Below are positions 12,145 through 33,013 of a stretch of 64,000 bases of DNA, one piece after another. How positions within the stretch are numbered: the first letter of the stretch is position 1; each line of letters opens with the position of its first letter. Made by a program: the position numbers and the translations under genes. The notes beneath the pieces are model-generated. The model worked only from the letters and a program-made list of their open reading frames with translations, was not told the origin of the DNA and ran no database searches. Source of the DNA: Candidatus Heimdallarchaeota archaeon (GTDB lineage Archaea > Asgardarchaeota > Heimdallarchaeia > Heimdallarchaeales > Heimdallarchaeaceae); assembly GCA_016840095.1 (NCBI GenBank), contig JAEOSZ010000111.1, positions 86,612 to 150,611 of the forward strand, given 5' to 3'.

Positions 12145-13266
12145 ATGAAAATAGGAATTAACTGCTTTCCAACTGTGGGCGGTTCAGGTATTGTTGCAAC
12201 ACAACTAGCTATCGAACTTGCCAAAAAAGGTCATGATATCCATCTTATTAGTTACGACACCCCATTTTTACTAAGGACTTTTAGACACCCCAATATTACT
12301 CTAGATTTGGTTGACATTATTTCCTATCCCTTGTTTAAAGATATTGGAGCTCCTTATACAATTTTAGCTGGTTCAAAATTGGCAAAAATCGCAGAAAAAT
12401 CTGATCTTGATTTACTTCATATACACTATGCTATTCCTACGGGAGTATCTGCATATCTTGCAAAACAGATTTCTAATGTGCCTGTTGCAATTACTGCTCA
12501 TGGTTCAGATATACATACACTAGGAATAGATCCAGCCTACAATCCTGTTATATCACATGTTTTTGATAACATTGATGGTTTGTCAACTGTATCAGAATAC
12601 ATGAAAAGGGAGATGGAAGAAAAATTTTCGCATAGTAAGGACATCGAGGTTTTATACAATCCTATTGATATTGAGAAGTACAAAAGAATAGATACTAAGC
12701 TTTGTGATTTTAGAATACAATATGAGAATAATTTTGTACATGTTTCAAACTTCAGACCTGTAAAAAATGCTCCATTTATCGTTGAATCATTTGCTGAAGT
12801 TGTAAAAGAACATCCTGATACAGGTTTAATTATGGTTGGAGAAGGACCTGAGAGAAAGAAATGTGAAGAACTGGCAAACAAATTAAATATCAGAGATAAT
12901 GTTATATTCCAAGGAGTAAGGGTTTCAATCACTCCAATCTATAACTGTGCTTCAGCTCTAATATCTGCCAGTAGCAATGAGAGTTTTGGTTTAACTTTAG
13001 CAGAAGCAATGTCTTGTGAAACTCCAGTTATTGCACCTAAAGTAGGTGGAATTCCAGAAGTAATAGACCATGAAATTAATGGCTATGTCTACGAATTAGG
13101 AAACAATGAAATGTTAACAAAATATATGCTAGAATTGCTAGAAGATTCCCGAAAAGTAAGAGAGATGGGTGCTAAAGGTAGACAAAAAGTTGTAGAAAAA
13201 TTTGAAGCAAGTAAAATTGCAGATAGATATGTTAATTGGTACGAAAGAATTCTTGAAGAACTATAA
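12145..13266 (+). CDS. bshA: N-acetyl-alpha-D-glucosaminyl L-malate synthase BshA (GT4)
   Basis: MKIGINCFPTVGGSGIVATQLA, LLHIHYAIP, TAHGSDI, HVSNFRPVK and ESFGL..AEAM match BshA-specific motifs; convergent with bshC. Confidence 0.85.
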   Translation: MKIGINCFPTVGGSGIVATQLAIELAKKGHDIHLISYDTPFLLRTFRHPNITLDLVDIISYPLFKDIGAPYTILAGSKLAKIAEKSDLDLLHIHYAIPTGVSAYLAKQISNVPVAITAHGSDIHTLGIDPAYNPVISHVFDNIDGLSTVSEYMKREMEEKFSHSKDIEVLYNPIDIEKYKRIDTKLCDFRIQYENNFVHVSNFRPVKNAPFIVESFAEVVKEHPDTGLIMVGEGPERKKCEELANKLNIRDNVIFQGVRVSITPIYNCASALISASSNESFGLTLAEAMSCETPVIAPKVGGIPEVIDHEINGYVYELGNNEMLTKYMLELLEDSRKVREMGAKGRQKVVEKFEASKIADRYVNWYERILEEL

Positions 13267-14883
13267 TCGAGCATTAATATATCCAATTCCTCCTATTGGA
13301 GAATCTTCAGAATAGTAGCGTCGATATGATGCTAAATAATCACTTAAACCTGTTACACTTGCCATGATGAACCAAGGCCAACTTACTTCTTGCCATTTGT
13401 GATTATCATCATACATTCCAAACTGCCAAGATTTGTATTTCTCAATATTACTATTTTGTTTATCGGAGATTTTTGTTATTTCTAACATTTTTGCTTCAAT
13501 AATCTTTGCAAGATTACTAGATTCAGCTGTCAATTGTTCTTGTTCTCCCTTCCTTCTAGCTTTGGCTAATCGTCCTAAAGTTTTAAAGAAATCTCCTGCA
13601 AAAAGAGATAAAGTCTCATCTCCAAGCTCTTGATTTAGATTTTCAATCCATGGAGTATTATATAACATTCTTGTATATTTTACATATATTGGAAACTGAA
13701 GGCCTATTTTTCTAGTTGCTGGAATTACTTGAGCATTGTAGTTTATCTCTCCTGGACCAGAAACTCTGATGTATACTGGCATTATAGATTGAAGCAGAGC
13801 TTGATTAGTATCTAATCGAGGTACTAATCTCAATGGAAGATTAGATAGATCAATGTTTTTTTTATCCACGACAAAAGAGTAGACTGTTTTATCGTTTGGA
13901 CATATCCCAGTGAAGTAAAGTGAGTCTTCCTTATCTTTGCAAGATAATTGAATCCTGTGACCATCTTTTGGACTCTCATAAAAGAAAGGAGCGTAATCTT
14001 CATCTTTCTTTGCAGTTGTAAACTGATATCCCAATTTTTCAATTGCTTCTGTAGCTTTATTAAATTCTTCAATATATTCAGTTCGTTTTTTGATAAAGGG
14101 TCTGTATCCATCAACTGATAGTTTCCTTATCTCTGGATGAGATGAAGGAAAGAAAACAACACCCCAATCATTGAAGATATTGGCTTGGATTCCCCAGAGT
14201 AAAGTTATCCATTCTCCTATATCTTTGGAAGATCTATAAGTTTCTCTAATGAAAGTGAGAATATGGTCTACTTTTTCTGTGAAAACCTTCTGAGAGGTTT
14301 TATCCAGGGAGGTTCTAAACTCGTTAAAGATATTTCTAATAATAGAAAGATTTTCTTCAAGCCATAAATATTCATTTGAAGCAATTTTGCTAGAAACTAA
14401 ACCATCAATTGCACTAGTTAACGAAATTGGTTTGCTTGCAGATGATTGATTATTGGGAAGATGAATGGTAGTGATTTCAGGTTGAATACTATCATGAGTA
14501 TTAACTAAGAACATAGGAACTAAGTAATGATTTTTCATTTTACTAACATCTGAGATTGCAGCAACTGTAGCAATTTTATTCCCAATTATACCTGAACCCC
14601 CAAAAATTGTAGCTTGTTGTCCCCCTAAAACTACTCCTTTGTGAATTAAATCAATATTGGCTTCAACTTTTGATGTCAGTAAACCCAAATCTTGGTGATA
14701 ATTTTTGAGTACACGTTTCAACTCTTCTATCTTATTGGAATCAATTGTAATTTTAGGCAATTCTTTAGCTACCTGAATTGAGTCTGAAATTGTTCGAGGA
14801 ACGTTTCCATAGAAATACTTGATATCTGATTTATTTGATCCATCATTAACGAATTTTTCGTACATATCGCCTATAGTTCCCAT
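13261..14883 (-). CDS. bshC: Bacillithiol biosynthesis BshC-like cysteine-adding enzyme
   Basis: VVLGGQQATIFGG...NK, VPMF..THD, APFFY, LLQSIMP, VSGPGEINYNAQ (compare BshC TGQQ...GGPGEIAY); 540 aa; overlaps the bshA stop region. Confidence 0.78.
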   Translation of the reverse strand: MGTIGDMYEKFVNDGSNKSDIKYFYGNVPRTISDSIQVAKELPKITIDSNKIEELKRVLKNYHQDLGLLTSKVEANIDLIHKGVVLGGQQATIFGGSGIIGNKIATVAAISDVSKMKNHYLVPMFLVNTHDSIQPEITTIHLPNNQSSASKPISLTSAIDGLVSSKIASNEYLWLEENLSIIRNIFNEFRTSLDKTSQKVFTEKVDHILTFIRETYRSSKDIGEWITLLWGIQANIFNDWGVVFFPSSHPEIRKLSVDGYRPFIKKRTEYIEEFNKATEAIEKLGYQFTTAKKDEDYAPFFYESPKDGHRIQLSCKDKEDSLYFTGICPNDKTVYSFVVDKKNIDLSNLPLRLVPRLDTNQALLQSIMPVYIRVSGPGEINYNAQVIPATRKIGLQFPIYVKYTRMLYNTPWIENLNQELGDETLSLFAGDFFKTLGRLAKARRKGEQEQLTAESSNLAKIIEAKMLEITKISDKQNSNIEKYKSWQFGMYDDNHKWQEVSWPWFIMASVTGLSDYLASYRRYYSEDSPIGGIGYINARL

Positions 14884-14964
14884 ATTTTAGAGTAAAATTG
14901 TATCTTCTTAATAATTTTTATATGACTTATCTTTTAACTAGTTATAGCTAACAGGTGATAGAAA

Positions 14965-23768: not shown

Positions 23769-26297
23769 ATGTCTCTTATTGATTACTGGAATTTACTATG
23801 GGATTTAATTAAAAATGATCCCAATATTGGAATTGGTATTCTTATTGCTTTGTTAGGCTTAATATTTCTTATATCAGAAATTGTTACAAAAATAAGACAT
23901 GGAACAACTTCAGAGAATCTGATGTTAGCATTTATTGCTCTAACTTTTGGCCTTGTTTTAATTTTTCTTAGCAACTGGTTAATAGCGATAGCTTTGAGTC
24001 TATTTGTATTAGCTGTTTATCAAACATATATGCTTAGAGAATCACCTGTGTGGAGGGAACTAATGATAATTTCAGTAGTAACGTATTTCGTATTCTTAGT
24101 AGGAACAGTAGGAGACAAAGTGTGGCAACTTGTAACTGGTGAAAAAAATGAGTTATTTACAGGTTGGGCTTATAACTTAATGTTATATGTTTTCATAATT
24201 CTTGCACTAATATTCTTTGGAAAGAAATTCGTACTAGTTAGTCGTTTTATGTCTCCTCAAGTATTATACTTGACACTCTTTGCACTTGTTTATGTTGCTT
24301 TATATGGAGTTGGCAAGTTAATTCCAGGATTTGATAACCTTACATGGAATTATATTGGACTTACATCATTTTCATTGTCCAATTTCTTCACAATTGGTGG
24401 TAGTTCTATTTCAGCAAGTGCAGGAAATCACCTGGGAGGTCTAGTTAAGACAGATTCCCCCTTAGTTCTAAGAACAATCTTTCTTTCTTTGGGACCTTGG
24501 GAAATGATTATTCTTCTTTCAATCTTAATGTATTTCATATCTGGTTGGCTTCTCACAGTACTACTGGGAATAAAACCAACTGATGATAAAAGAGTTCTGA
24601 AGGTTGTAGAAGAAGTAAGAATCCGTTTAGGAATAAAGAGAAAAATCAAGGTTGGTTTTGTTGAAGCCCCAATTTTAAATGCGATGGCCTATGGACCTTT
24701 GTTCGATCAAAGAATAGCACTCATTTCATCAAGCCTAGATGAGTTTAGTGATGATGATATTAGAGGAATTGTTGCACACGAATTAGCTCATAACCAAAGA
24801 GGTCACATCATTTGGCTTCAATTGTTAGCTTGGATTGAGATGATTATTAAGAAAGCATTTTTACTACCTGCAACAACCTTAGACTATGCTGCAGTTAAAG
24901 GACTTATCCCATTTGGTTTGTATTTCCTGATTAGCTATGGAATTATTGCAGTTCTCTATATCTTTGTTAGAATCTTGGAGGGTGACGCTGATCTACAAAC
25001 TAAAAAAGCAGGTTATGGTAGAGAGTTAGCTCAAGTTTTGTACAAACTTGAAGGCTTTTATCAAGGTGTTGCGGGTGATTTTGGAATAAATGTTCAATTA
25101 TTGACAGGCAAAGAATTTAGTCCTGAGGAGAAACAAAGGTTCCAAGGAGAAGCAGCAATGAGACTCTATAAACATCTTTACCGTCCTGGTAGATGGGATA
25201 TGGTTGCAAATCTGTTTATGTCTCACCCACGAACAGCATACAGAATAGTAGCTGTTGTAAGTGATGATTATTCCCCAGTCAAAGGTGCATTACTGCCCTT
25301 TTGGTTAGTTTTACCTAATTTCATTAGAGGAAATGCAATCAGAAAAATGAGCAAAAGAAGAGATGATTTCTCAAAATTAATTTCAGATAGATACAACGAA
25401 TATCACGGAGAAGATGGTGTAAAATCATTTCTTGAAATTACGAGAATGCATGATTTAATCTCAATGCTCAAAGGTAGATATGTTGTTGCATACGATAGAA
25501 TTTTTGATGATTGTATAGAAGGTGAAGTTATAGATATTGAAATTAGTGATACTATAGTCAGACCTCTTCTTTTGAATATTCAAACAGAAAAAGAAGTTAA
25601 GAAAATTCTCTTTACAGATTATGTTATTCATGACGCTCAAAAAGAGGACAAATATATCTTGAAAAATGGTAAAATGGGTAAATTAGTCTCTTGGGATTTA
25701 GATGAAAAAAATCAAAGTCCAACATTTACTTTTCAAGAAATTTCCGACACTTCTAAAACTTTCAAGCGAGATTATACAGGAAAACCGATATCACATTTCA
25801 CAGAATTGATAGGACAGGAAGTATTCAGCTATAATGATGGATTAGACAGGAAGGCAACTTTAACAGATATATCCTTTGAAAAGGATTTTGCTTCCTCTAA
25901 ACTTACTCTTGAGACAGATGATAATGGTAAGATGAAAAAATTTGAGCTCACAGGGAGAGATGTTATTATTGACTTACCACCAGTATTAGTAAGACTTAAT
26001 CCTGATAAAAAGGGTCATCAAACAGGTTTGATAGAGTCTATTGTAGATAAGTCAGTTATTCTTTATACAAAAGAGGAATTAGAAACTGGCATTGCGTGCT
26101 CTATAACAAGTGTAAGTGATGAAAAAATAACTTATAAAATAAAAGATAAAGAATCTGAAGTTGAAAGGAAGAAGGTTGATTATATCTATATTTATACAGA
26201 TATTCCAAAGTTCATGATAAAGAAGCATATATCTTCTCTTGATAGGATTATGATGCGAATCTCAAATATTCGTGATATGAAGTATATTTTTGGATAA
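23769..26297 (+). CDS. M48 (HtpX/Ste24-like) membrane zinc protease with large N-terminal TM region and C-terminal beta-rich extension
   Basis: NAMAYG, AHELAH, EGDAD, SHPRT. Confidence 0.85.
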   Translation: MSLIDYWNLLWDLIKNDPNIGIGILIALLGLIFLISEIVTKIRHGTTSENLMLAFIALTFGLVLIFLSNWLIAIALSLFVLAVYQTYMLRESPVWRELMIISVVTYFVFLVGTVGDKVWQLVTGEKNELFTGWAYNLMLYVFIILALIFFGKKFVLVSRFMSPQVLYLTLFALVYVALYGVGKLIPGFDNLTWNYIGLTSFSLSNFFTIGGSSISASAGNHLGGLVKTDSPLVLRTIFLSLGPWEMIILLSILMYFISGWLLTVLLGIKPTDDKRVLKVVEEVRIRLGIKRKIKVGFVEAPILNAMAYGPLFDQRIALISSSLDEFSDDDIRGIVAHELAHNQRGHIIWLQLLAWIEMIIKKAFLLPATTLDYAAVKGLIPFGLYFLISYGIIAVLYIFVRILEGDADLQTKKAGYGRELAQVLYKLEGFYQGVAGDFGINVQLLTGKEFSPEEKQRFQGEAAMRLYKHLYRPGRWDMVANLFMSHPRTAYRIVAVVSDDYSPVKGALLPFWLVLPNFIRGNAIRKMSKRRDDFSKLISDRYNEYHGEDGVKSFLEITRMHDLISMLKGRYVVAYDRIFDDCIEGEVIDIEISDTIVRPLLLNIQTEKEVKKILFTDYVIHDAQKEDKYILKNGKMGKLVSWDLDEKNQSPTFTFQEISDTSKTFKRDYTGKPISHFTELIGQEVFSYNDGLDRKATLTDISFEKDFASSKLTLETDDNGKMKKFELTGRDVIIDLPPVLVRLNPDKKGHQTGLIESIVDKSVILYTKEELETGIACSITSVSDEKITYKIKDKESEVERKKVDYIYIYTDIPKFMIKKHISSLDRIMMRISNIRDMKYIFG

Positions 26298-26357
26298 GTT
26301 TCCACAAAATCCCACTTCTTTCAAATTTTTTTAATTTTCTAAATTAGTTTGTAGATT

Positions 26358-26981
26358 TCAATATTTGATATGGTCAATTCCTTTAGTTTGACCTATATGC
26401 CCTACTTTTTCTCCAAATGTCCAAAATTCACCACATCCTGCAACCATCCCAAAGAACTGTTTTGATTCAGGATCTAATCTTCCATTTTCATCAGTAACTC
26501 CCTTATGGACACTAGTTCTTACAACTTCAGCAAAAAAAACAATCCGATTTGGTGGTAGTTCATGGGAAGAAATTATCTTACATTCAAGTATTATAGCTGC
26601 TTCTGCTATTCCAGGGGCATCAATATACTTTGAAGAAATTCTTGTTAAATTTGCTTTTTTAAATTTATCCTCTCTTTCAGTTTGACACATATCTATAATA
26701 TCAAATGAATTAGTCCATGAAGTGTCAGGTACATTTAATGTAAACTCTCTGTGCTTGAAAATCAAATCAAGAGCAGCATGTTCATGCTCATTTGTAGTAC
26801 TTTTCTTAGTAACACTAATACCGATTTGTGGAGGATCTCCATTCAATATGAATGTCCAAGCACAGGTAAGATCATCTTCTATATCTTCATCGCCTTTAAC
26901 TCCCAATATGATTGCTGGAACAGGTGGGAGCATTGGTCCAGGTTTTTTTAAATCGATTCGAGTTTCACCAATATTATTCAT
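26358..26981 (-). CDS. Flavin reductase-like (DIM6/NTAB) protein
   Basis: PVPAII, PPQIGISV, EFTLNVP, DKF, APGIAEA..ILECK. Confidence 0.85.
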   Translation of the reverse strand: MNNIGETRIDLKKPGPMLPPVPAIILGVKGDEDIEDDLTCAWTFILNGDPPQIGISVTKKSTTNEHEHAALDLIFKHREFTLNVPDTSWTNSFDIIDMCQTEREDKFKKANLTRISSKYIDAPGIAEAAIILECKIISSHELPPNRIVFFAEVVRTSVHKGVTDENGRLDPESKQFFGMVAGCGEFWTFGEKVGHIGQTKGIDHIKY

Positions 26982-27205
26982 CTACTTACATGGGATATTT
27001 CCAAATTTAAATCATTCTGAATGCTGGAAATCTATTAAATCAAGCTATCCGTTCTATTACTTTTTTTGTAAAAAACAACTCTTCTTACTCTTTTTCGAAT
27101 TCGGTAGTTTAATGTTTTTTGTCAATATATTGCGTTTTAACATGTTTCCAGTATATTATGCTGATATTAAACCTTGTTTTTAATAAAGCCCCTTTCTTAG
27201 ACTTA

Positions 27206-27574
27206 ATGAATAGTGAAGAATCTATCATCAACTATGTACTTAGGAATGAACTCGCTTCAAGAAATGTATCAGTTAGAGAAAATGCCACTTTTAAATTTGG
27301 TAGAAACAAATATGTGATAGATTTCTATCTAAATGGGCATGATATTGGTATTGTAACAATGAACTGGAAACGAACTATTCCAACAAATAAGTTACTCCAA
27401 CTTGAACAACTTATAATATCGCTAAAACTGAAAAAACTAGTTCTCGTGTGCAATTCTATAAGTTCTAACGCAAAAGACTTCCTAGCACGACGCAACATCC
27501 CAATACAGGTCATTCATCTAAATGAAATCTTGTATAAAGAAAGAAGGATTGAGGATTTGATAGCTAGTTATTAG
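27206..27574 (+). CDS. Small restriction-endonuclease-like (Mrr/PD-(D/E)XK fold) protein, probably degenerate
   Basis: VIDFYL..IGIVTMNWKRTI...LVLVCNSISSNAKDF..IQVI; the E-x-K motif is not conserved. Confidence 0.5.
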   Translation: MNSEESIINYVLRNELASRNVSVRENATFKFGRNKYVIDFYLNGHDIGIVTMNWKRTIPTNKLLQLEQLIISLKLKKLVLVCNSISSNAKDFLARRNIPIQVIHLNEILYKERRIEDLIASY

Positions 27575-27577
27575 AAT

Positions 27578-28594
27578 CTAAAGAAATGAATCTAAGATTG
27601 TTTGCTTTGAAAGTGGAATAGAACTAAATCCTTGTTTTCTTAGTTCTGCAGCAAATCTAGTTGTATATCCATAAATTGTGTATATCTGATCCGGATTGCT
27701 TAATTTGCAAATCTCAACTAGTTCATTATAATCTGCATGATCGCTTATAGGGTAACTATGGTCCACAGCCATTCTGTAATTGTAGTTGTCTGAAATAGCC
27801 CACCCAGTAAAAGCAAATAACTTTACATCATATTTCTTTTTCAGATACGAGAAGAAGAAATCTCTCCCAGATTTAAGTGGAGTAAAAAGTATCCATTGAT
27901 TTTTTTGGTCAAGGAAATTAGATTCTTTTGCTTCTGTATATGCCATTGCTGGAATAGATCCTTTAATTTTCTCTTCCAGAAGCAAGGAGTTTATTTTGTA
28001 ATTAGACCCATGCATGACAATATTATCAGAAAGATGCGAAAAAGCATTATAGAGCATTTGAGCTTTACCTAATGCATAACCCATCAGTACAACAGGAATA
28101 TCATTCTCTAGATATTCCGAGATTTGTTCCTGTGCTTCCTTTATCACATTACCATATGCTGGAAATATATAATCAGGTGACCCAAATGTACTTTCTATAA
28201 TTAAGATATCACACTTTTCTGGAGAGAAAGGTTCCAAGAATCCTTTATCTCGGGATGAAACATCCCCCGTATAAACAAGCTTCCCTTCTGAAGATTCAAT
28301 TATTAAAGCAGTAGACCCTACAATGTGTCCACTAGGTTTTTGTTTGAAAGTTGTAGAATCAACAGTATATGATTCAAAATAATTCCCCTCTTCATAGTTT
28401 TTAACAAAATTCTTCAAAAGAATTTTTGTTGTAGGTGATGTAATAATGTCAGTTTTAGGAATTTTTCTTGGGATATGATCTGAATGAGCGTGACTATAGA
28501 ATACAAGAGGATAATACTGTGAGTTCGTACTATCACAAGCAAGTTTCCAATTATTACCATTAACCCTTATTGTTTTAGAGAGAAAAACTTTCAT
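27578..28594 (-). CDS. MBL-fold beta-CASP nuclease with C-terminal PIP box
   Basis: SHAHSDH, SGHIVGS, YTGD, IESTFG, YALGKAQ, TGW, ISDHADY; ends KQTILDSFL. Confidence 0.85.
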   Translation of the reverse strand: MKVFLSKTIRVNGNNWKLACDSTNSQYYPLVFYSHAHSDHIPRKIPKTDIITSPTTKILLKNFVKNYEEGNYFESYTVDSTTFKQKPSGHIVGSTALIIESSEGKLVYTGDVSSRDKGFLEPFSPEKCDILIIESTFGSPDYIFPAYGNVIKEAQEQISEYLENDIPVVLMGYALGKAQMLYNAFSHLSDNIVMHGSNYKINSLLLEEKIKGSIPAMAYTEAKESNFLDQKNQWILFTPLKSGRDFFFSYLKKKYDVKLFAFTGWAISDNYNYRMAVDHSYPISDHADYNELVEICKLSNPDQIYTIYGYTTRFAAELRKQGFSSIPLSKQTILDSFL

Positions 28595-28660
28595 TATCCT
28601 CAGCACAATTGTGCAGATTTGCAATTATAAATATAATGTAAAAATAAGAAAAAAATAGAT

Positions 28661-29317
28661 TTATGCTTTATAAGGCATAATTTCTATTGCGATATTATCG
28701 TCTGTTAGTTCAACATCTCTAGCAGCCTTTTTAATGGCTTCCTTGGCTATTTGAACCATTTGGTCAGTTGTTAATTCATCTGAATACTTTTCTTTAAGAT
28801 AAGCAATAGCTTCTGAATCACCTTCTCCCATAGCTTTTGCTTTACATGAAACAACTCCACCACCAGGATCAACGAATTGTAAACTTGGTCCAGTTTCGTC
28901 TATTCCACCAAACAGCATACCAACACCAAATGGTCTTAATCCACCTTGTTGTGTAAAGACTTGAACATAATCTCCAGTTTTAATTGCTAGTCCTCTAACA
29001 TCCATTTGAACAGAGTATGTTAGTTTAAATATCTCAGCTTCAAGACGAGCTCTACTTATCAGAACACGACCATCAGCAGCTACTCCTGCAAAAATTGCTT
29101 GAATATTATCAGAGACTTTGTGAATTTTCAGATCAGGTTCATTGAGATCTACAACTCTTAATAAACCAGCTAAAACAACACCATGTTTACTCTTTATTCC
29201 TATTGCAATACTTCCTCTTCTAACTGATTCTCTTGCATATTCAGTTTGAATGATACGTCCTTCTGGAGAATACATTAGAGGTGATCTATCATAACCCATT
29301 GATTGTGGTCCTAACAT
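28661..29317 (-). CDS. psmA: 20S proteasome alpha subunit (divergent, short)
   Basis: GYDR..MYSPEGRI.Q.EYA, G..ADGRVL..ARLEA, TQQGGLRPFGV, DP.G, KAKAMG. Confidence 0.9.
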   Translation of the reverse strand: MLGPQSMGYDRSPLMYSPEGRIIQTEYARESVRRGSIAIGIKSKHGVVLAGLLRVVDLNEPDLKIHKVSDNIQAIFAGVAADGRVLISRARLEAEIFKLTYSVQMDVRGLAIKTGDYVQVFTQQGGLRPFGVGMLFGGIDETGPSLQFVDPGGGVVSCKAKAMGEGDSEAIAYLKEKYSDELTTDQMVQIAKEAIKKAARDVELTDDNIAIEIMPYKA

Positions 29318-29321
29318 TTTC

Positions 29322-29984
29322 TTAAGCCTCCAAGTAACCTTTTACTTCATCAGCTGCCAATCTCTTGACACCTTTTTTGTTCACTAACAAAACATCAATT
29401 CCGTCACCAGTAGCAGTATCTCTGCTTGTAGCTGTAGCTAAAGCAGTTATTGCAACTTTGAGTGCTTCTTCTTCAGTTAAACCATCTTTCCAGGTTGATT
29501 CTAAAACACCATATGCAACTAAAGATCCAGAACCTGTAGATGCAAAGTCTTCTTCAGTGATTCCACCTGCCATATCTAGTGTATAAATATGTGGTCCATC
29601 CTTATCCAGACCTGCAACAACCATGGCAACATAATATGGAAAATATGACCTATATTGTTCATACATGATAGAAGCCAGTAAATTTCCAGCCATTTTTGTA
29701 GTAGGTGAGTAACCTCTTCCAAGCGAATAGAGGTTGAGATTAGCTCTTGTAAGATGAACTAGATATTGTGCATCTCCAACCAATCCTGCAATTGTAGCAA
29801 CTGTAGATTCATTGAGTTCATGGACTTTTTCAGCTTTCTTTGAAGCAACAAAAGATCCCATAGAAGCTCTTTTGTCAGCCGCTACAACAGTACCTCCTTT
29901 AAATCTAACAGCAACAGTTGTAGTTCCATGCTTGGGATCCATCATCGGATTATTTCCCATTCCATTGAAATTCGGATTATTCAT
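29322..29984 (-). CDS. psmB: 20S proteasome beta subunit
   Basis: Propeptide ...KHG|TTTVA, AADKRAS, KVH, AGLVGDAQ, TGSGS..AYGVLE, RDTATGDG. Confidence 0.95.
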   Translation of the reverse strand: MNNPNFNGMGNNPMMDPKHGTTTVAVRFKGGTVVAADKRASMGSFVASKKAEKVHELNESTVATIAGLVGDAQYLVHLTRANLNLYSLGRGYSPTTKMAGNLLASIMYEQYRSYFPYYVAMVVAGLDKDGPHIYTLDMAGGITEEDFASTGSGSLVAYGVLESTWKDGLTEEEALKVAITALATATSRDTATGDGIDVLLVNKKGVKRLAADEVKGYLEA

Positions 29985-30046
29985 ATTAATTCCTCATTAT
30001 TTTTTATTTAATTTGTTTAAATATATAGTGTTCTATGAATGATTTT

Positions 30047-30763
30047 CTAATTGTATGTATCTTTGATAAAATCTTCAACAATTTCATAATCTTCAATTTC
30101 TATATTAACTTCATCTAGAGAATATATCTCATTTCTTATCCAGTTTGTAGCTTCTTGTATTTTGTTGTAACTAGGTAAGGATGTTCGATATTCAATGCTA
30201 ATTTGGTTTCCTTTTTGAATGTAGAGATGAACTCTATCATTATTGTTGTCTTCCCAACATAATTCAATACCTTCTTTGTTTTCTCTTTTGTAAAGAAATC
30301 TAAAATTACCGAACCATCTCTTTTCAAATGCTGAAACTAGTATTTCAGATTTTAATGGTGGAATTAAATGTATCTTTTTCCATTGGGAATAGAACCTGTT
30401 GTTCTGTATGTTAATAGCATTGTTAGTTATTAAATCCTTGATTAATCCTTTAGTATAATCGCTTCCAATATTTGTAAGTTCATATGTCCCATTATCTCTT
30501 CTGGATAGAAATTCTCTATCTATTAACCTTTTCAGAGCTTTAGTTAATTGATTTTGATGAAGCAAAGTAGTTTTCTTTAACCCTGAAAAACTATAAGAGA
30601 TTTGAGAATCTGATAAAGTTAATAATAGTTGGACCTCTGGTAATGTTAAATAATCATACTCATTACTATAGAAGTAATCCTTTGGAAGATTGCCTAACTC
30701 AAGGTTGTTATTGTAACCTTCTTTCAAGTTAGAAAAATCTCGATACCCTTGGTCCATATTCAT
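30047..30763 (-). CDS. Winged-helix domain protein (putative transcription regulator)
   Basis: LTLPEVQLLLTL...SFSGLKKTTLLHQNQLTKALKRLIDREFLSR..GTYELT. Confidence 0.7.
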   Translation of the reverse strand: MNMDQGYRDFSNLKEGYNNNLELGNLPKDYFYSNEYDYLTLPEVQLLLTLSDSQISYSFSGLKKTTLLHQNQLTKALKRLIDREFLSRRDNGTYELTNIGSDYTKGLIKDLITNNAINIQNNRFYSQWKKIHLIPPLKSEILVSAFEKRWFGNFRFLYKRENKEGIELCWEDNNNDRVHLYIQKGNQISIEYRTSLPSYNKIQEATNWIRNEIYSLDEVNIEIEDYEIVEDFIKDTYN

Positions 30764-30847
30764 AGTATTATCAATATTATATTATCATAGTACTTTATAA
30801 TGACTTGGTTTTTGCAGAATTTAAAGGAAAAAGAACAAAATATCTTT

Positions 30848-32593
30848 TCAGTTATCTTTCTCTCTATTGTTTTCTTTCTCTATTTCACTTGAAGGACTGA
30901 CTGAAGTAGGATGTAGGTATACTTCTCCATCTAAAATCGTATATGGTATTCTTCTTTCATCTATCCATGGAGCTGTTTCTCTGAATTCCTTGAACATATC
31001 ATTACTCACAATCATGGCATTCTCTTCTTCTGCTAGACGCAGAATGAATTTATCACCATCAACTCTAGCAGGTAACATTTTCATCGCTCCTTCCTTGACT
31101 AACCTATCTAACCGTTTTTGTTCATCAATTTGGTATCGCAATGCTGCATCTGCAACCGTAACGATTTTCTTGAAATTAGCTCTACTTAATCGATTGATCA
31201 TTGCTTCTATATTATTTATTTGTGGTTTATTTGAAAGACTCTTTTCTTCCCATGCTATATTTGAACCATCTAGAATAACCGTTTCTAAAGGATACGATAC
31301 TTCAGGGAAAATTCTTGAGCTTGTAGTTCGAACTCTTCTTGCAATTCCTAAAATGATATCTCTAGAGTAATAAGCTAAACCTATAATCAGTGAAACAAAG
31401 AAGATACTGTAAAAAATAATTGGTTGAAAAATAATTGGAGAGCTTTCAACTGGTATAACTGATACAGCTTGAAATTGTGTAAATAGAAGGATAGTATACC
31501 ATTTCGTCTCAGATACTGTAATCCATTCTAAATCTATACTAAAGGATAATGGGTGTGTTCCATCAATTTGAGGAACACCATAAATGTAATTGTTGTGTCT
31601 ACCTCCCGCAATTCCCACAGAAACATCTTCAATACCTTCAAAAATTATCTGATCGCAATGAATCTCTGGAACAACGTATAACGTTTCATTTTCGTTGTTA
31701 ATTATCTGATATGTTATCACATAATCCTCTCCCATATTCACAGAAATAGGTAGTTGAAAACTGTCAATAACTAAATCAGGTTCTACGATTATTTCTAGTG
31801 GATCACTTAGATAAACCCTTGGAGTATCTGGATCATCAATAGTTCTAAAGGTTATTGTAAATGAGTGTTTTTGGAAAAGGTAATCATCAGGATAGAATGA
31901 AATTATACCATCGTAAAATGCCCCTTCTGCAATTTCAATATTCTGTATTGAATGCGATCTTGTCATTGAACCATCTGTTCCAGTTTTTGTAATTTCATTT
32001 GTTACAGTTACATTTGTAACTGTAGTCCCTCCTACATTATTTATTCTACATGAAACTTGATTATCTTGATACCTTGTAAGAAAAGCAGGATTTGAAGGAA
32101 AGAACATCCTGACTTGTCCGAAAGGTAGAACAATTAGAGTAAAGGATGCTGTAGCATTGTAAGTTGTTGTTGTAGTACTGTTCGCAACAGCTTTAACAGT
32201 AAAAACTCCTCCGTCTTGACCATTAAAAGTTTGCCAAGGGACTGTACGATTGAATTCATCTGTCGTATTTACCCAAACAGTTTCTTCGAAGATATTCTCA
32301 CTAAAAGTGTTAGAGATATTGTAATAAACAGTTGAATCAGGGATTAGTGTATTATTTTCGTAGCAAAACTTCATAGTTAAATTGAGATCGTTTACTCCTC
32401 TAGTAATCTCTGATGGATTTGTATAAAAGCTGAAAGTAGCATTTTCAAAGCTTTGAATAACATATCGAGAGTTCTCTTCTATAGGAGGTTCTATAGCTAG
32501 TGCTACATTAGAAGTAGGATTAACAGTCATTGCCAAAAAGAAAATTCCTACTAAAACTATTAGAATGCTATTATTCAATAACCTCCTAAGCAT
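30848..32593 (-). CDS. Single-pass membrane protein: signal peptide, Ig-like ectodomains, TM, cytoplasmic NYN/Zc3h12a(Regnase)-like PIN RNase
   Basis: N-terminal signal peptide; sequon-rich beta ectodomain; TM IIFYSIFFVSLIIGLAYY; VILDGSNIAW, VADAAL, DGDKFIL, IVSNDMFKEF, WIDERRIPY. Confidence 0.85.
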   Translation of the reverse strand: MLRRLLNNSILIVLVGIFFLAMTVNPTSNVALAIEPPIEENSRYVIQSFENATFSFYTNPSEITRGVNDLNLTMKFCYENNTLIPDSTVYYNISNTFSENIFEETVWVNTTDEFNRTVPWQTFNGQDGGVFTVKAVANSTTTTTYNATASFTLIVLPFGQVRMFFPSNPAFLTRYQDNQVSCRINNVGGTTVTNVTVTNEITKTGTDGSMTRSHSIQNIEIAEGAFYDGIISFYPDDYLFQKHSFTITFRTIDDPDTPRVYLSDPLEIIVEPDLVIDSFQLPISVNMGEDYVITYQIINNENETLYVVPEIHCDQIIFEGIEDVSVGIAGGRHNNYIYGVPQIDGTHPLSFSIDLEWITVSETKWYTILLFTQFQAVSVIPVESSPIIFQPIIFYSIFFVSLIIGLAYYSRDIILGIARRVRTTSSRIFPEVSYPLETVILDGSNIAWEEKSLSNKPQINNIEAMINRLSRANFKKIVTVADAALRYQIDEQKRLDRLVKEGAMKMLPARVDGDKFILRLAEEENAMIVSNDMFKEFRETAPWIDERRIPYTILDGEVYLHPTSVSPSSEIEKENNREKDN

Positions 32594-32687
32594 TTATACA
32601 CTTCTATTTTTTTATTCAAGATAACATTTGAACTGGGTTTAATAAATTTTTGTTAATGTTTTCTGATTCTATAAGAATAAGAATAAT

Positions 32688-33013
32688 GGACGATGCAGAA
32701 ATACCCCTGATTCTGTTCGGAAGCCATTAGGATCTTCCTGGCAACATTCATCTAAGCACTTTACCCAGTTCTTACGAACTCTACTTAAGCTTGCTCCACG
32801 ATGTTTGACCGTTTCATCGTATCCTAGTTTCTTCTCAGCAATTTATTCTAAACATGTCACCAGTCTATTTATCGCATCATTGTTATCGAAACTAGGGCGT
32901 TCGTTTCTGTTTCAAGAGCCATATTCTCATATGGTGGATTTACATCCACATCGTTATTATGGAGTCAGGAGGTTCCTCAGCAATAAGCCGAAAGTTGCCC
33001 TTTTGCTTCGTCC
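32688..33013 (-). ncRNA. rnpB: RNase P RNA
   Basis: Minus strand 5' GGACGAAGCA...GAGGAACCTCCTGA..., internal ACAGAAACGAA and GAAACGG, 3' ...AACAGAATCAGGGG...TGCATCGTCC. P1 GGACGA/TCGTCC and P4-region CCTCCTGA/TCAGGGG pairings; about 326 nt. Confidence 0.88.

Follow-up and report, generated by a model that had tools for sequence, protein, structure and literature searches.

Six genes lie in series on the minus strand of the 64,000-nt stretch of DNA analysed here (the window; coordinates without a prefix are window positions), which comes from a metagenome-assembled genome of the family Heimdallarchaeaceae (3.44 Mb, 89% complete). They encode, in order, the RNA of RNase P (rnpB), a membrane protein with an RNase domain of the NYN type, a winged helix-turn-helix (wHTH) protein, the beta and alpha subunits of the 20S proteasome (psmB and psmA) and a beta-CASP metallo-beta-lactamase nuclease. 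A first-pass annotation had described six minus-strand genes in series, a description borne out by profile matches for all six features, and had proposed that they might form a module resembling the unfolded protein response (UPR), with sensor RNase, transcription regulator and proteasome joined as in the IRE1-XBP1/Hac1 pathway. The locus thus raises the question of whether the run is one module and, if not, which of its genes belong together and what might control them.

We read the run as a composite of four or five transcription units, not as one module. Judged from sequence, the most economical division is into rnpB, the NYN gene, wHTH-psmB-psmA (with an internal psmB promoter) and the beta-CASP gene. 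The third of these appears to be a proteasome unit driven by a short promoter box, and we hold with moderate confidence that the wHTH protein binds this box and governs its own gene, psmBA and a gene for a PAC2-type assembly chaperone. Below, f, g, G, L and C denote families, genera, genomes, loci and contigs, respectively; f1 is Heimdallarchaeaceae (5 genera, ~30 genomes), f1–f4 are the four families of its order, and g13 comprises the complete Ca. Heimdallarchaeum genomes.

A promoter box before the proteasome genes

The putative proteasome unit and its signals are as follows:

30794–30805, minus strand: AGTCA box abutting a TATA box (AGTCATTATAAA), 42 nt upstream of the wHTH ATG, found by alignment of upstream regions
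30047–30763, minus strand: wHTH gene (238 aa), with weak MarR/SarA wHTH matches; putative first gene of the box-driven unit
30015–30030, minus strand: second TATA-like element (CACTATATATTTAAAC), between wHTH and psmB, found by alignment of upstream regions
29322–29984, minus strand: psmB, 20S proteasome beta subunit (PF00227, E 1e-55)
28661–29317, minus strand: psmA, 20S proteasome alpha subunit (PF00227, E 3e-45; PF10584)
28640–28655, minus strand: strong terminator-like oligo-T run (TTTTTTTCTTATTTTT) after psmA

The psmB product is a beta subunit, with a propeptide followed by Thr after HG (KHG, then TTTVAV), although its score against TIGR03634 (204 bits) is slightly under the equivalog cut-off of 224. 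The psmA product is an alpha subunit (PF10584, 30.3 bits against a cut-off of 27.7); it scores 206.8 bits against NF003075 and, at 218 aa, lacks ~30 C-terminal residues of that model. A search of the 89%-complete genome returned this one beta gene and this one alpha gene as the only PF00227 matches, so psmBA represent the housekeeping proteasome. The two genes are adjacent, beta then alpha, in every genome of the class that was examined (28661–29984 in the window; L143–L150 and L160–L171 among the loci); in other archaea psmA and psmB are often unlinked. The gap of 4 nt between them is as first annotated, whereas the other gaps, given there as about 60–95 nt, come to 97, 84 and 62 nt from rnpB down to psmB, with a further 36 nt from psmA to a TTG start of the beta-CASP gene or 66 nt to an ATG start. 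T-rich runs follow psmA in every relative. No oligo-T run lies between wHTH and psmB, and wHTH is probably co-transcribed with psmBA. The TATA-like element at 30015–30030 is a putative internal psmB promoter kept in the genus; it is all that we found at 29985–30046, where the first-pass annotation had proposed binding by the wHTH protein, and the conserved box lies instead at 30794–30805, upstream of the wHTH gene.

The link between wHTH and psmBA extends far beyond the family. In f1 the order rnpB-NYN-wHTH-psmB-psmA is kept wherever contigs allow (~30 genomes, all five genera), so the chance adjacency that the first-pass annotation had allowed for does not hold within the family. In g13 the wHTH gene alone is inverted, yet it still lies between NYN and psmB. 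In f2 it is directly downstream of psmA. Among the other families of the class Heimdallarchaeia, wHTH, psmB and psmA are adjacent and co-oriented in 5/5 loci of f7, and in 6/6 loci of f5 wHTH lies ~4 kb upstream of psmB-psmA on the same strand. The f5 loci (one genus, six species; L160, L163, L164, L165, L168, L171) share the order Hsp20, wHTH, a LeuRS-like class-I aminoacyl-tRNA synthetase gene, psmB and psmA on one strand; the single Hsp20 promoter read, that of L165, carries no AGTCA box. Outside the class, members of the wHTH family are present in a few Asgard families (f9, f18, f22, f28 and f29), and none was found in two large ones (0/71 and 0/92); in f29 the gene adjoins psmB-psmA in one genome and is ~4 kb away in another. 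The synteny check that the first-pass annotation called for therefore gives a split answer: the six-gene order is kept in f1, but only wHTH-psmB-psmA is linked across the class and in one further Asgard family. On this gene-order evidence, only the wHTH–psmBA association is ancient. In seven f3 loci where wHTH is away from the proteasome (L090, L093, L094, L096 and L100–L102), it is followed on the same strand by a small conserved open reading frame (ORF) of 80–136 aa, which matches no Pfam family and has no obvious counterpart in the genome of the window.

The box accompanies this unit through its rearrangements. In genera g1 and g10 it lies 40–43 nt ahead of the wHTH start codon (ATG); in g12, g13 and f2 it lies upstream of psmB, always facing psmB, with exactly one copy per locus of 9–17 kb. 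Upstream of psmB it was found in 10/10 loci of f2, f3 and f4 and in 11/11 loci of f5 and f7. Scored uniformly (AGTCA with 7/8 A/T or better, within 160 nt upstream), the box precedes psmB or a co-oriented wHTH gene in 44 of 47 genomes from six families, two of the three misses being contig ends, against a background of 2.0% of the 2,741 ORF starts in the genome of the window. The flanks of the box cannot be aligned between families. AGTCA sits at the exact position of the B recognition element (BRE), and ACT-N often precedes it, giving an imperfect (G)ACT-N-AGTC palindrome that abuts the TATA box; only the right half is strongly conserved. Simple inversion scenarios were considered for g13 and fail to explain why the box faces psmB there, where wHTH is inverted. 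A scan for promoters and terminators of bacterial type, which does not apply to archaea, gave the same counts as shuffled sequence. Upstream of psmB in L143 and L147 (g3, in f3) two AGTCA motifs stand in direct repeat, 11–12 nt or about one helical turn apart (AGTCAggactcAGTCAttttta), a spacing that might permit cooperative binding.

Elsewhere in the genome the box is rare. The form AGTCATTAWAWA has six copies where 13 are expected, and only two of these are at promoter distance from an ORF: those of wHTH and of a PAC2 gene. AGTCAT followed by five A/T is likewise under-represented (156 found, 314 expected); 12 of its matches are in promoter position, again including wHTH and PAC2. We rejected this relaxed pattern as a sign of a wider regulon, the other matches being three insertion sequence (IS)-like ORFs, a bshC-like gene and unrelated ORFs. 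The PAC2 gene, on another contig (G000:C152:9595–10338), matches PF09754 over positions 1–214 of 215 (113.6 bits against a cut-off of 25.8, E 1.5e-32) and belongs to that family. It directly follows rpl3-rpl4-rpl23-rpl2 (G000:C152:5000–10400, L104). In g11–g13 and f2 it abuts rpl2 and has no separate promoter, whereas in g1, g10 and g3 (of f3) it has its own AGTCA-box promoter, and the box is conserved between g1 and g10 despite unalignable flanks.

Two further occurrences were recorded. A variant of the box (AGTCATATAAAA) lies at 14916–14927 on the minus strand, 44 nt upstream of a 540-aa ORF (13261–14883). Three near-identical ORFs of ~436 aa (G000:C28:17883, C57:6494 and C163:222481; MMTLVWRVECIEL…) each have AGTCATATTAA 89 nt upstream; they are probably IS-encoded, and AGTCATATTAA is probably part of the end of the element, not a regulatory box.

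The wHTH protein as candidate reader of the box

The AlphaFold 2 (AF2) model of the wHTH protein (predicted local distance difference test (pLDDT) score 82) has two domains. Residues 25–116 form a MarR-type winged helix (VIA Z 12.1, root mean squared deviation 2.1 Å over 88 residues to MarR 3cdh), which dozens of other MarR structures match at Z 10–11.6. Residues 123–233 form an alpha/beta domain resembling the N-domain of spermine synthase (Z 11.9) and Roco COR-B (Z 10), both of which are dimerisation modules. The protein is thus of MarR type by its winged helix, but its PF01047 (MarR) score of 18.7 bits is below the cut-off of 24.6 and its C-terminal half is alpha/beta, in place of a helical dimerisation interface. 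No Pfam family covers it, and for the C-terminal domain, which found no match in a PDB sequence search, Pfam or the protein atlas, fold comparison was the sole informative search.

Across the family, at 17–26% identity, F59, G61, H69, L73, L77, R79, Y94 and R155 are invariant, and in the predicted recognition helix H69, Q70 and R79 vary little or not at all. The invariant positions cluster in the predicted helix-turn-helix, recognition helix and wing (SFQGL…HQ..L..AL.RL, and Y94), as fits a conserved DNA target. In f4 (G027:C150:2261–2965 and G031:C429:21989–22693) the wHTH profile match runs through one in-frame TAG in both genomes, where the true start may lie downstream of the stop.

Gene and box also travel together. 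The box, or a form with 1–2 mismatches, precedes the wHTH genes of f6 and f7, and the box precedes those of f9, f28 and f29. The 7–17 kb fetched in f9 and f28 contained no psmB, and a box at wHTH genes that have no proteasome gene in the fetched flanks fits autoregulation. Before a beta-subunit gene the box was found in 8 of the 10 wHTH-positive families sampled, and 12 beta genes from five wHTH-negative Asgard genomes showed none (Fisher's exact test, p ~0.007, with families counted as independent, which overstates the case).

Taken together, these observations on linkage, box distribution and fold, all drawn from sequence comparison, suggest that an AGTCA-at-BRE promoter probably drives wHTH-psmB-psmA, with the same element before the PAC2 gene. 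The wHTH protein, a MarR-type winged helix with a putative dimerisation domain, would bind the box and, by controlling PAC2 and the proteasome core genes along with its own gene, would head a dedicated proteasome regulon. The box occupies the BRE/TATA region, which suggests repression; activation through recruitment of transcription factor B (TFB) is equally possible. Of the first-pass proposal, the pairing of a regulator with the proteasome is strengthened, by class-wide linkage and by a box common to wHTH, psmB and PAC2, while its resemblance to the UPR falls away.

Several points weigh against control by the wHTH protein. The wHTH promoters of f3, f4 and f5 have no box, and f9 and f18 have wHTH but no exact box at the beta-subunit gene. 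For a MarR-type dimer the conserved site is short and a 4-1-4 palindrome unusual. The box is missing at PAN, two Cdc48 genes, another AAA ATPase gene and the second PAC2 paralogue, so any regulon must be small. Related genomes, moreover, are not independent samples, and a single-copy wHTH found class-wide might act as a structural proteasome partner instead.

This last possibility deserves a hearing of its own. The wHTH protein might be a proteasome accessory or assembly factor that uses its winged helix for protein contacts and is co-expressed with psmBA and PAC2 from box promoters read by another factor. Its gene looks like a housekeeping gene, near-universal in the class and present once in each of 78 of the 83 genomes. 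It heads the proteasome unit and has a promoter element in common with an assembly chaperone gene, and its promoters in f3–f5 lack the box. However, the fold is that of MarR-type DNA binders, matched at Z 10–12 by dozens of them, the invariant residues fall in the predicted recognition helix and wing, and the box also stands at wHTH genes with no proteasome gene in the fetched flanks. We regard an accessory role as improbable.

Alternatively, AGTCA could be a core-promoter signature or BRE variant that a general factor, for instance a TFB paralogue, recognises; wHTH would then be a neighbour of long standing whose regulatory role is unrelated. The motif does lie exactly where a BRE would, conserved mainly in its right half, and such a box is carried by ~2% of other ORF starts. 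A general signature would not, however, be expected to co-occur with wHTH at beta-subunit genes as described above (8/10 families against 0/5 genomes), to recur at wHTH genes in five or more families, or to be depleted genome-wide in its extended form. We consider this explanation still less probable than an accessory role, and continue with the wHTH protein as the candidate reader of the box.

The membrane RNase and the other neighbours

The remaining members of the run, and the signals read from sequence around them, are as follows:

32691–33010, minus strand: rnpB, archaeal RNase P RNA gene (RF00373, 156.8 bits, gathering score 84, full model 1–288)
32638–32651, minus strand: TATA-like element (AAAAATTTATTAAA) following rnpB, ~50 nt upstream of the NYN start codon
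30848–32593, minus strand: NYN RNase gene (581 aa), PF11977 RNase_Zc3h12a at aa 436–557
30823–30840, minus strand: T-rich stretch (TTTTGTTCTTTTTCCTTT) directly past the NYN stop codon
28625–28638, minus strand: TATA-like element of the beta-CASP gene, accompanied by a GAGG motif
27578–28594 (ATG) or 27578–28624 (TTG), minus strand: beta-CASP metallo-beta-lactamase nuclease gene (TIGR04122 and RMMBL matches)

Judged by gene order and promoters, rnpB, NYN and beta-CASP are neighbours of the proteasome unit: their adjacency is at family level (order level for NYN), their promoters carry no box, and nothing else ties them to it.

The NYN protein is the most elaborate of these. PF11977 (62.9 bits against a cut-off of 23) is the sole Pfam match on its 581 aa, and this gene is the only PF11977 match in the 89%-complete genome. 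In the AF2 model (pLDDT 83) an N-terminal hydrophobic signal or anchor is followed by three confidently modelled beta-sandwich Ig-like ectodomains, a transmembrane (TM) helix at aa 387–409 and a single cytoplasmic NYN domain of the Regnase/Zc3h12a type at aa 436–560. Ten N-glycosylation sequons lie in the ectodomain, the cytoplasmic part has no such site, and five K/R follow the TM helix (TM2). The protein thus appears to be a receptor-like single-pass membrane protein. A Foldseek search with the ectodomain, which does not exclude an unlisted fold, returned only generic tandem Ig-like or MG-like folds. The NYN domain finds KHNYN and ZC3H12A/B/C in PDB sequence searches. Among 22 sequences from four families D442, N445, D482, D514 and D532 are invariant and E536 nearly so, and these catalytic DGSN, D and SND residues are kept while the ectodomain falls to ~20% identity. 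The set D442, N445, D514, D532 and E536 presumably corresponds to the catalytic residues D141, N144, D226, D244 and D248 of Regnase-1, matched by way of KHNYN/ZC3H12 alignments. Together with the score above cut-off, the acidic catalytic residues place the domain among RNase_Zc3h12a NYN domains, and a membrane-anchored RNase of this type is an interesting orphan in its own right.

Could this RNase be the sensor of a UPR-like pathway, responding to an extracytoplasmic cue by cutting the mRNA of wHTH, that of the proteasome genes or the transcript of rnpB? Its topology is receptor-like and its catalytic residues are intact. It adjoins wHTH-psmBA in all five genera of f1; in f2 it is divergent from psmB, ~400 nt apart, and in two f3 genomes it lies 5 and 12 kb from psmBA. 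Its transcript may also reach the box. The T-rich stretch at 30823–30840 is a possible archaeal terminator, but such a run is not present in all species, and in some the NYN stop codon lies ~12–20 nt from the box with no T-run between, making read-through possible.

The distribution of the gene points the other way. NYN orthologues occur in all four families of the order and almost only there; at E<=1e-15 they were found in none of 22 f5 and none of 12 f7 genomes, families that keep both the wHTH–psmBA link and the box. In f3 and f4 NYN mostly lies away from the proteasome genes, and its neighbours there (AlaX-like, MOFRL and alkaline phosphatase genes, a gene for a 609-aa protein of unknown function, and others) give no functional clue. 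The TATA-like element at 32638–32651 is a putative separate NYN promoter without AGTCA box, and in g13 a comparable element abuts the rnpB 3' end. Pfam and the AF2 model show no kinase or KEN domain on the 581-aa protein, and its ectodomain is generically Ig-like; on the modelled architecture it is no relative of IRE1, only a loose architectural analogue. The conserved stem-loops proposed for the wHTH mRNA did not appear either: RNAalifold, applied to two short stretches only, the wHTH 5' region and the wHTH-psmB junction, returned no conserved structure (consensus −0.6 and −1.5 kcal/mol).

The RNase P transcript fares no better as a target. The rnpB gene scores above the RF00373 gathering threshold over the full model and adjoins NYN in all five genera of f1, but it was not found within the 5–16 kb fetched around NYN at 11 loci of three other families, and on this evidence its adjacency to the run is family-specific. 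Among PIN-like nucleases, PF11977 is assigned to the PRORP-like group, which puts it structurally alongside protein-only RNase P, and its bacterial members are listed as of unknown function (PMC5499597). This makes the adjacency of rnpB a curiosity, and nothing more supports a link.

The UPR-like proposal therefore rests on family-level adjacency, and we judge it very unlikely. Its narrower form, in which an extracytoplasmic or envelope signal in Heimdallarchaeaceae activates NYN, which then cuts the leader of the box-driven wHTH-psmBA transcript or the wHTH mRNA alone and so resets proteasome output, has if anything a slimmer chance; were it true, the closest relatives of eukaryotes would possess a prokaryotic pathway from membrane to proteasome that works by RNA cleavage.

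At the other end of the run, the beta-CASP gene probably starts at the ATG at 28594, after a GAGG Shine–Dalgarno-like motif, which gives a 66-nt gap and a product of 338 aa. The best family match is TIGR04122, a ligase-associated DNA-damage-response exonuclease and not an RNase (139.8 bits, below the cut-off of 325). The HAHSDH motif is present, RMMBL (PF07521, 18.5 bits) and PF12706 are below their cut-offs, and PDB matches include RNases (TTHA0252, CPSF73) and DNA nucleases (SNM1A, Apollo) alike. The product may be a DNA nuclease; no ligase or helicase was seen among the gene's neighbours. With what appears to be its own promoter (28625–28638), the gene is no stable member of the proteasome unit. 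The HtpX-type protease noted beyond it is indeed a membrane metalloprotease (M48/M56), but it is 842 aa long and lies on the opposite strand (23769–26297); a flavin reductase gene and a 151-aa ORF without Pfam match (orf151) lie between. The block of beta-CASP, orf151 and M48/M56 genes is conserved in all five genera of f1, and in three species of the window's genus (G001, G023 and G016; L035, L036 and L037) it has been inverted or relocated as a unit relative to psmA. In the window (23769–28624) the block carries the flavin reductase gene as an extra insertion.

The opposite-strand orf151 and M48 genes, which look unrelated to the proteasome, are as stably adjacent in f1 as the run itself, so conservation at family level cannot separate function from inertia. 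Even so, the notion that the whole run is an inherited order without functional meaning has next to no credibility, since the wHTH–psmBA link is kept at class level and beyond while the rest has been reshuffled, and it survives inversion of wHTH alone; inertia, already disfavoured for this core, is the default for rnpB, NYN and beta-CASP.

Comparison with known systems

We know of no dedicated transcriptional regulator or cis-element of archaeal proteasome genes, and a literature search returned no description of either, or of a membrane NYN RNase. Heimdallarchaeia are the archaeal group usually placed nearest to eukaryotes. Three linked features, a class-wide box at the 20S operon, the same box at an assembly-chaperone gene and a co-inherited wHTH of an uncharacterised family, suggest a dedicated proteasome regulon in this class. 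As a candidate it is concrete (one protein, one 12-bp site, two promoters) and cheap to test.

Two operon precedents bear on the gene order. The archaeal exosome–proteasome superoperon, reportedly described by Koonin et al. in 2001, is said to join psmA with Rrp4/41/42 and RNase P protein subunits, and the window likewise has the proteasome beside RNA-processing genes including an RNase P component. However, psmA is here paired with psmB, and the RNase P neighbour is an RNA gene and family-specific. In this genome Rrp41/42 (C49:25858–27316) and Rpp14 (C49:50302) lie on one contig and the sole psmA on another (C122), so the superoperon does not explain the RNase P neighbour. The actinobacterial prcB-prcA cluster shares the order beta then alpha, near-abutting, with a wHTH-type regulator alongside; no pupylation genes are present here, the subunits are archaeal-type, and the actinobacterial PafBC, of the HTH-WYL type, regulate the response to DNA damage and not the proteasome.

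For the membrane RNase, the homologous NYN domains are those of Regnase-1/ZC3H12A, KHNYN and N4BP1, with the DGSN, D and SND motifs conserved; the archaeal protein has no CCCH zinc finger, KH or ubiquitin-binding domain and is membrane-anchored, with a sequon-rich ectodomain. The likeness to IRE1-Hac1/XBP1 lies in a protein that crosses the membrane once, with one domain outside the cytoplasm and an RNase within it, and in a transcription-factor gene and degradation machinery alongside. Unlike IRE1, however, the protein combines an RNase of NYN/PIN-like fold with three Ig-like modules and has no kinase/KEN part, no structured RNA target appeared in the tested stretches, and the RNase was not found in lineages that retain the regulator–proteasome pair.

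Among archaeal regulators, Phr of Pyrococcus and Thermococcus is an autoregulated wHTH heat-shock regulator (~200 aa) that dimerises through a separate C-terminal part; its binding covers core promoter elements, and its targets are proteostasis genes (hsp20 and an AAA+ ATPase gene). The wHTH protein resembles it as an archaeal wHTH with a separate C-terminal domain, and in f5 its gene is flanked by an Hsp20 gene. No sequence relationship between the two was detected, the C-terminal domain is alpha/beta here and a coiled coil in Phr, and the putative targets are the 20S core and PAC2, not chaperones.

The closest parallels are eukaryotic. Rpn4 with PACE in yeast, Nrf1 (NFE2L1) with ARE in mammals and NAC53/78 with PRCE in plants are dedicated proteasome regulons that set proteasome abundance. 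As in these, one short cis-element stands at the promoters of core-subunit and assembly-factor genes and a dedicated DNA-binding protein is associated with it (through binding that is here predicted); in many lineages the box also stands at the candidate regulator's own gene. The eukaryotic regulators have zinc finger, bZIP or NAC folds, unrelated to a MarR-type wHTH; in the archaeal case the gene of the candidate regulator lies within the operon or next to it, and 2–3 promoters make up the regulon so far. By analogy, the best reading is that the proposed Heimdallarchaeia system resembles the logic of Rpn4/PACE, and not that of IRE1/XBP1.

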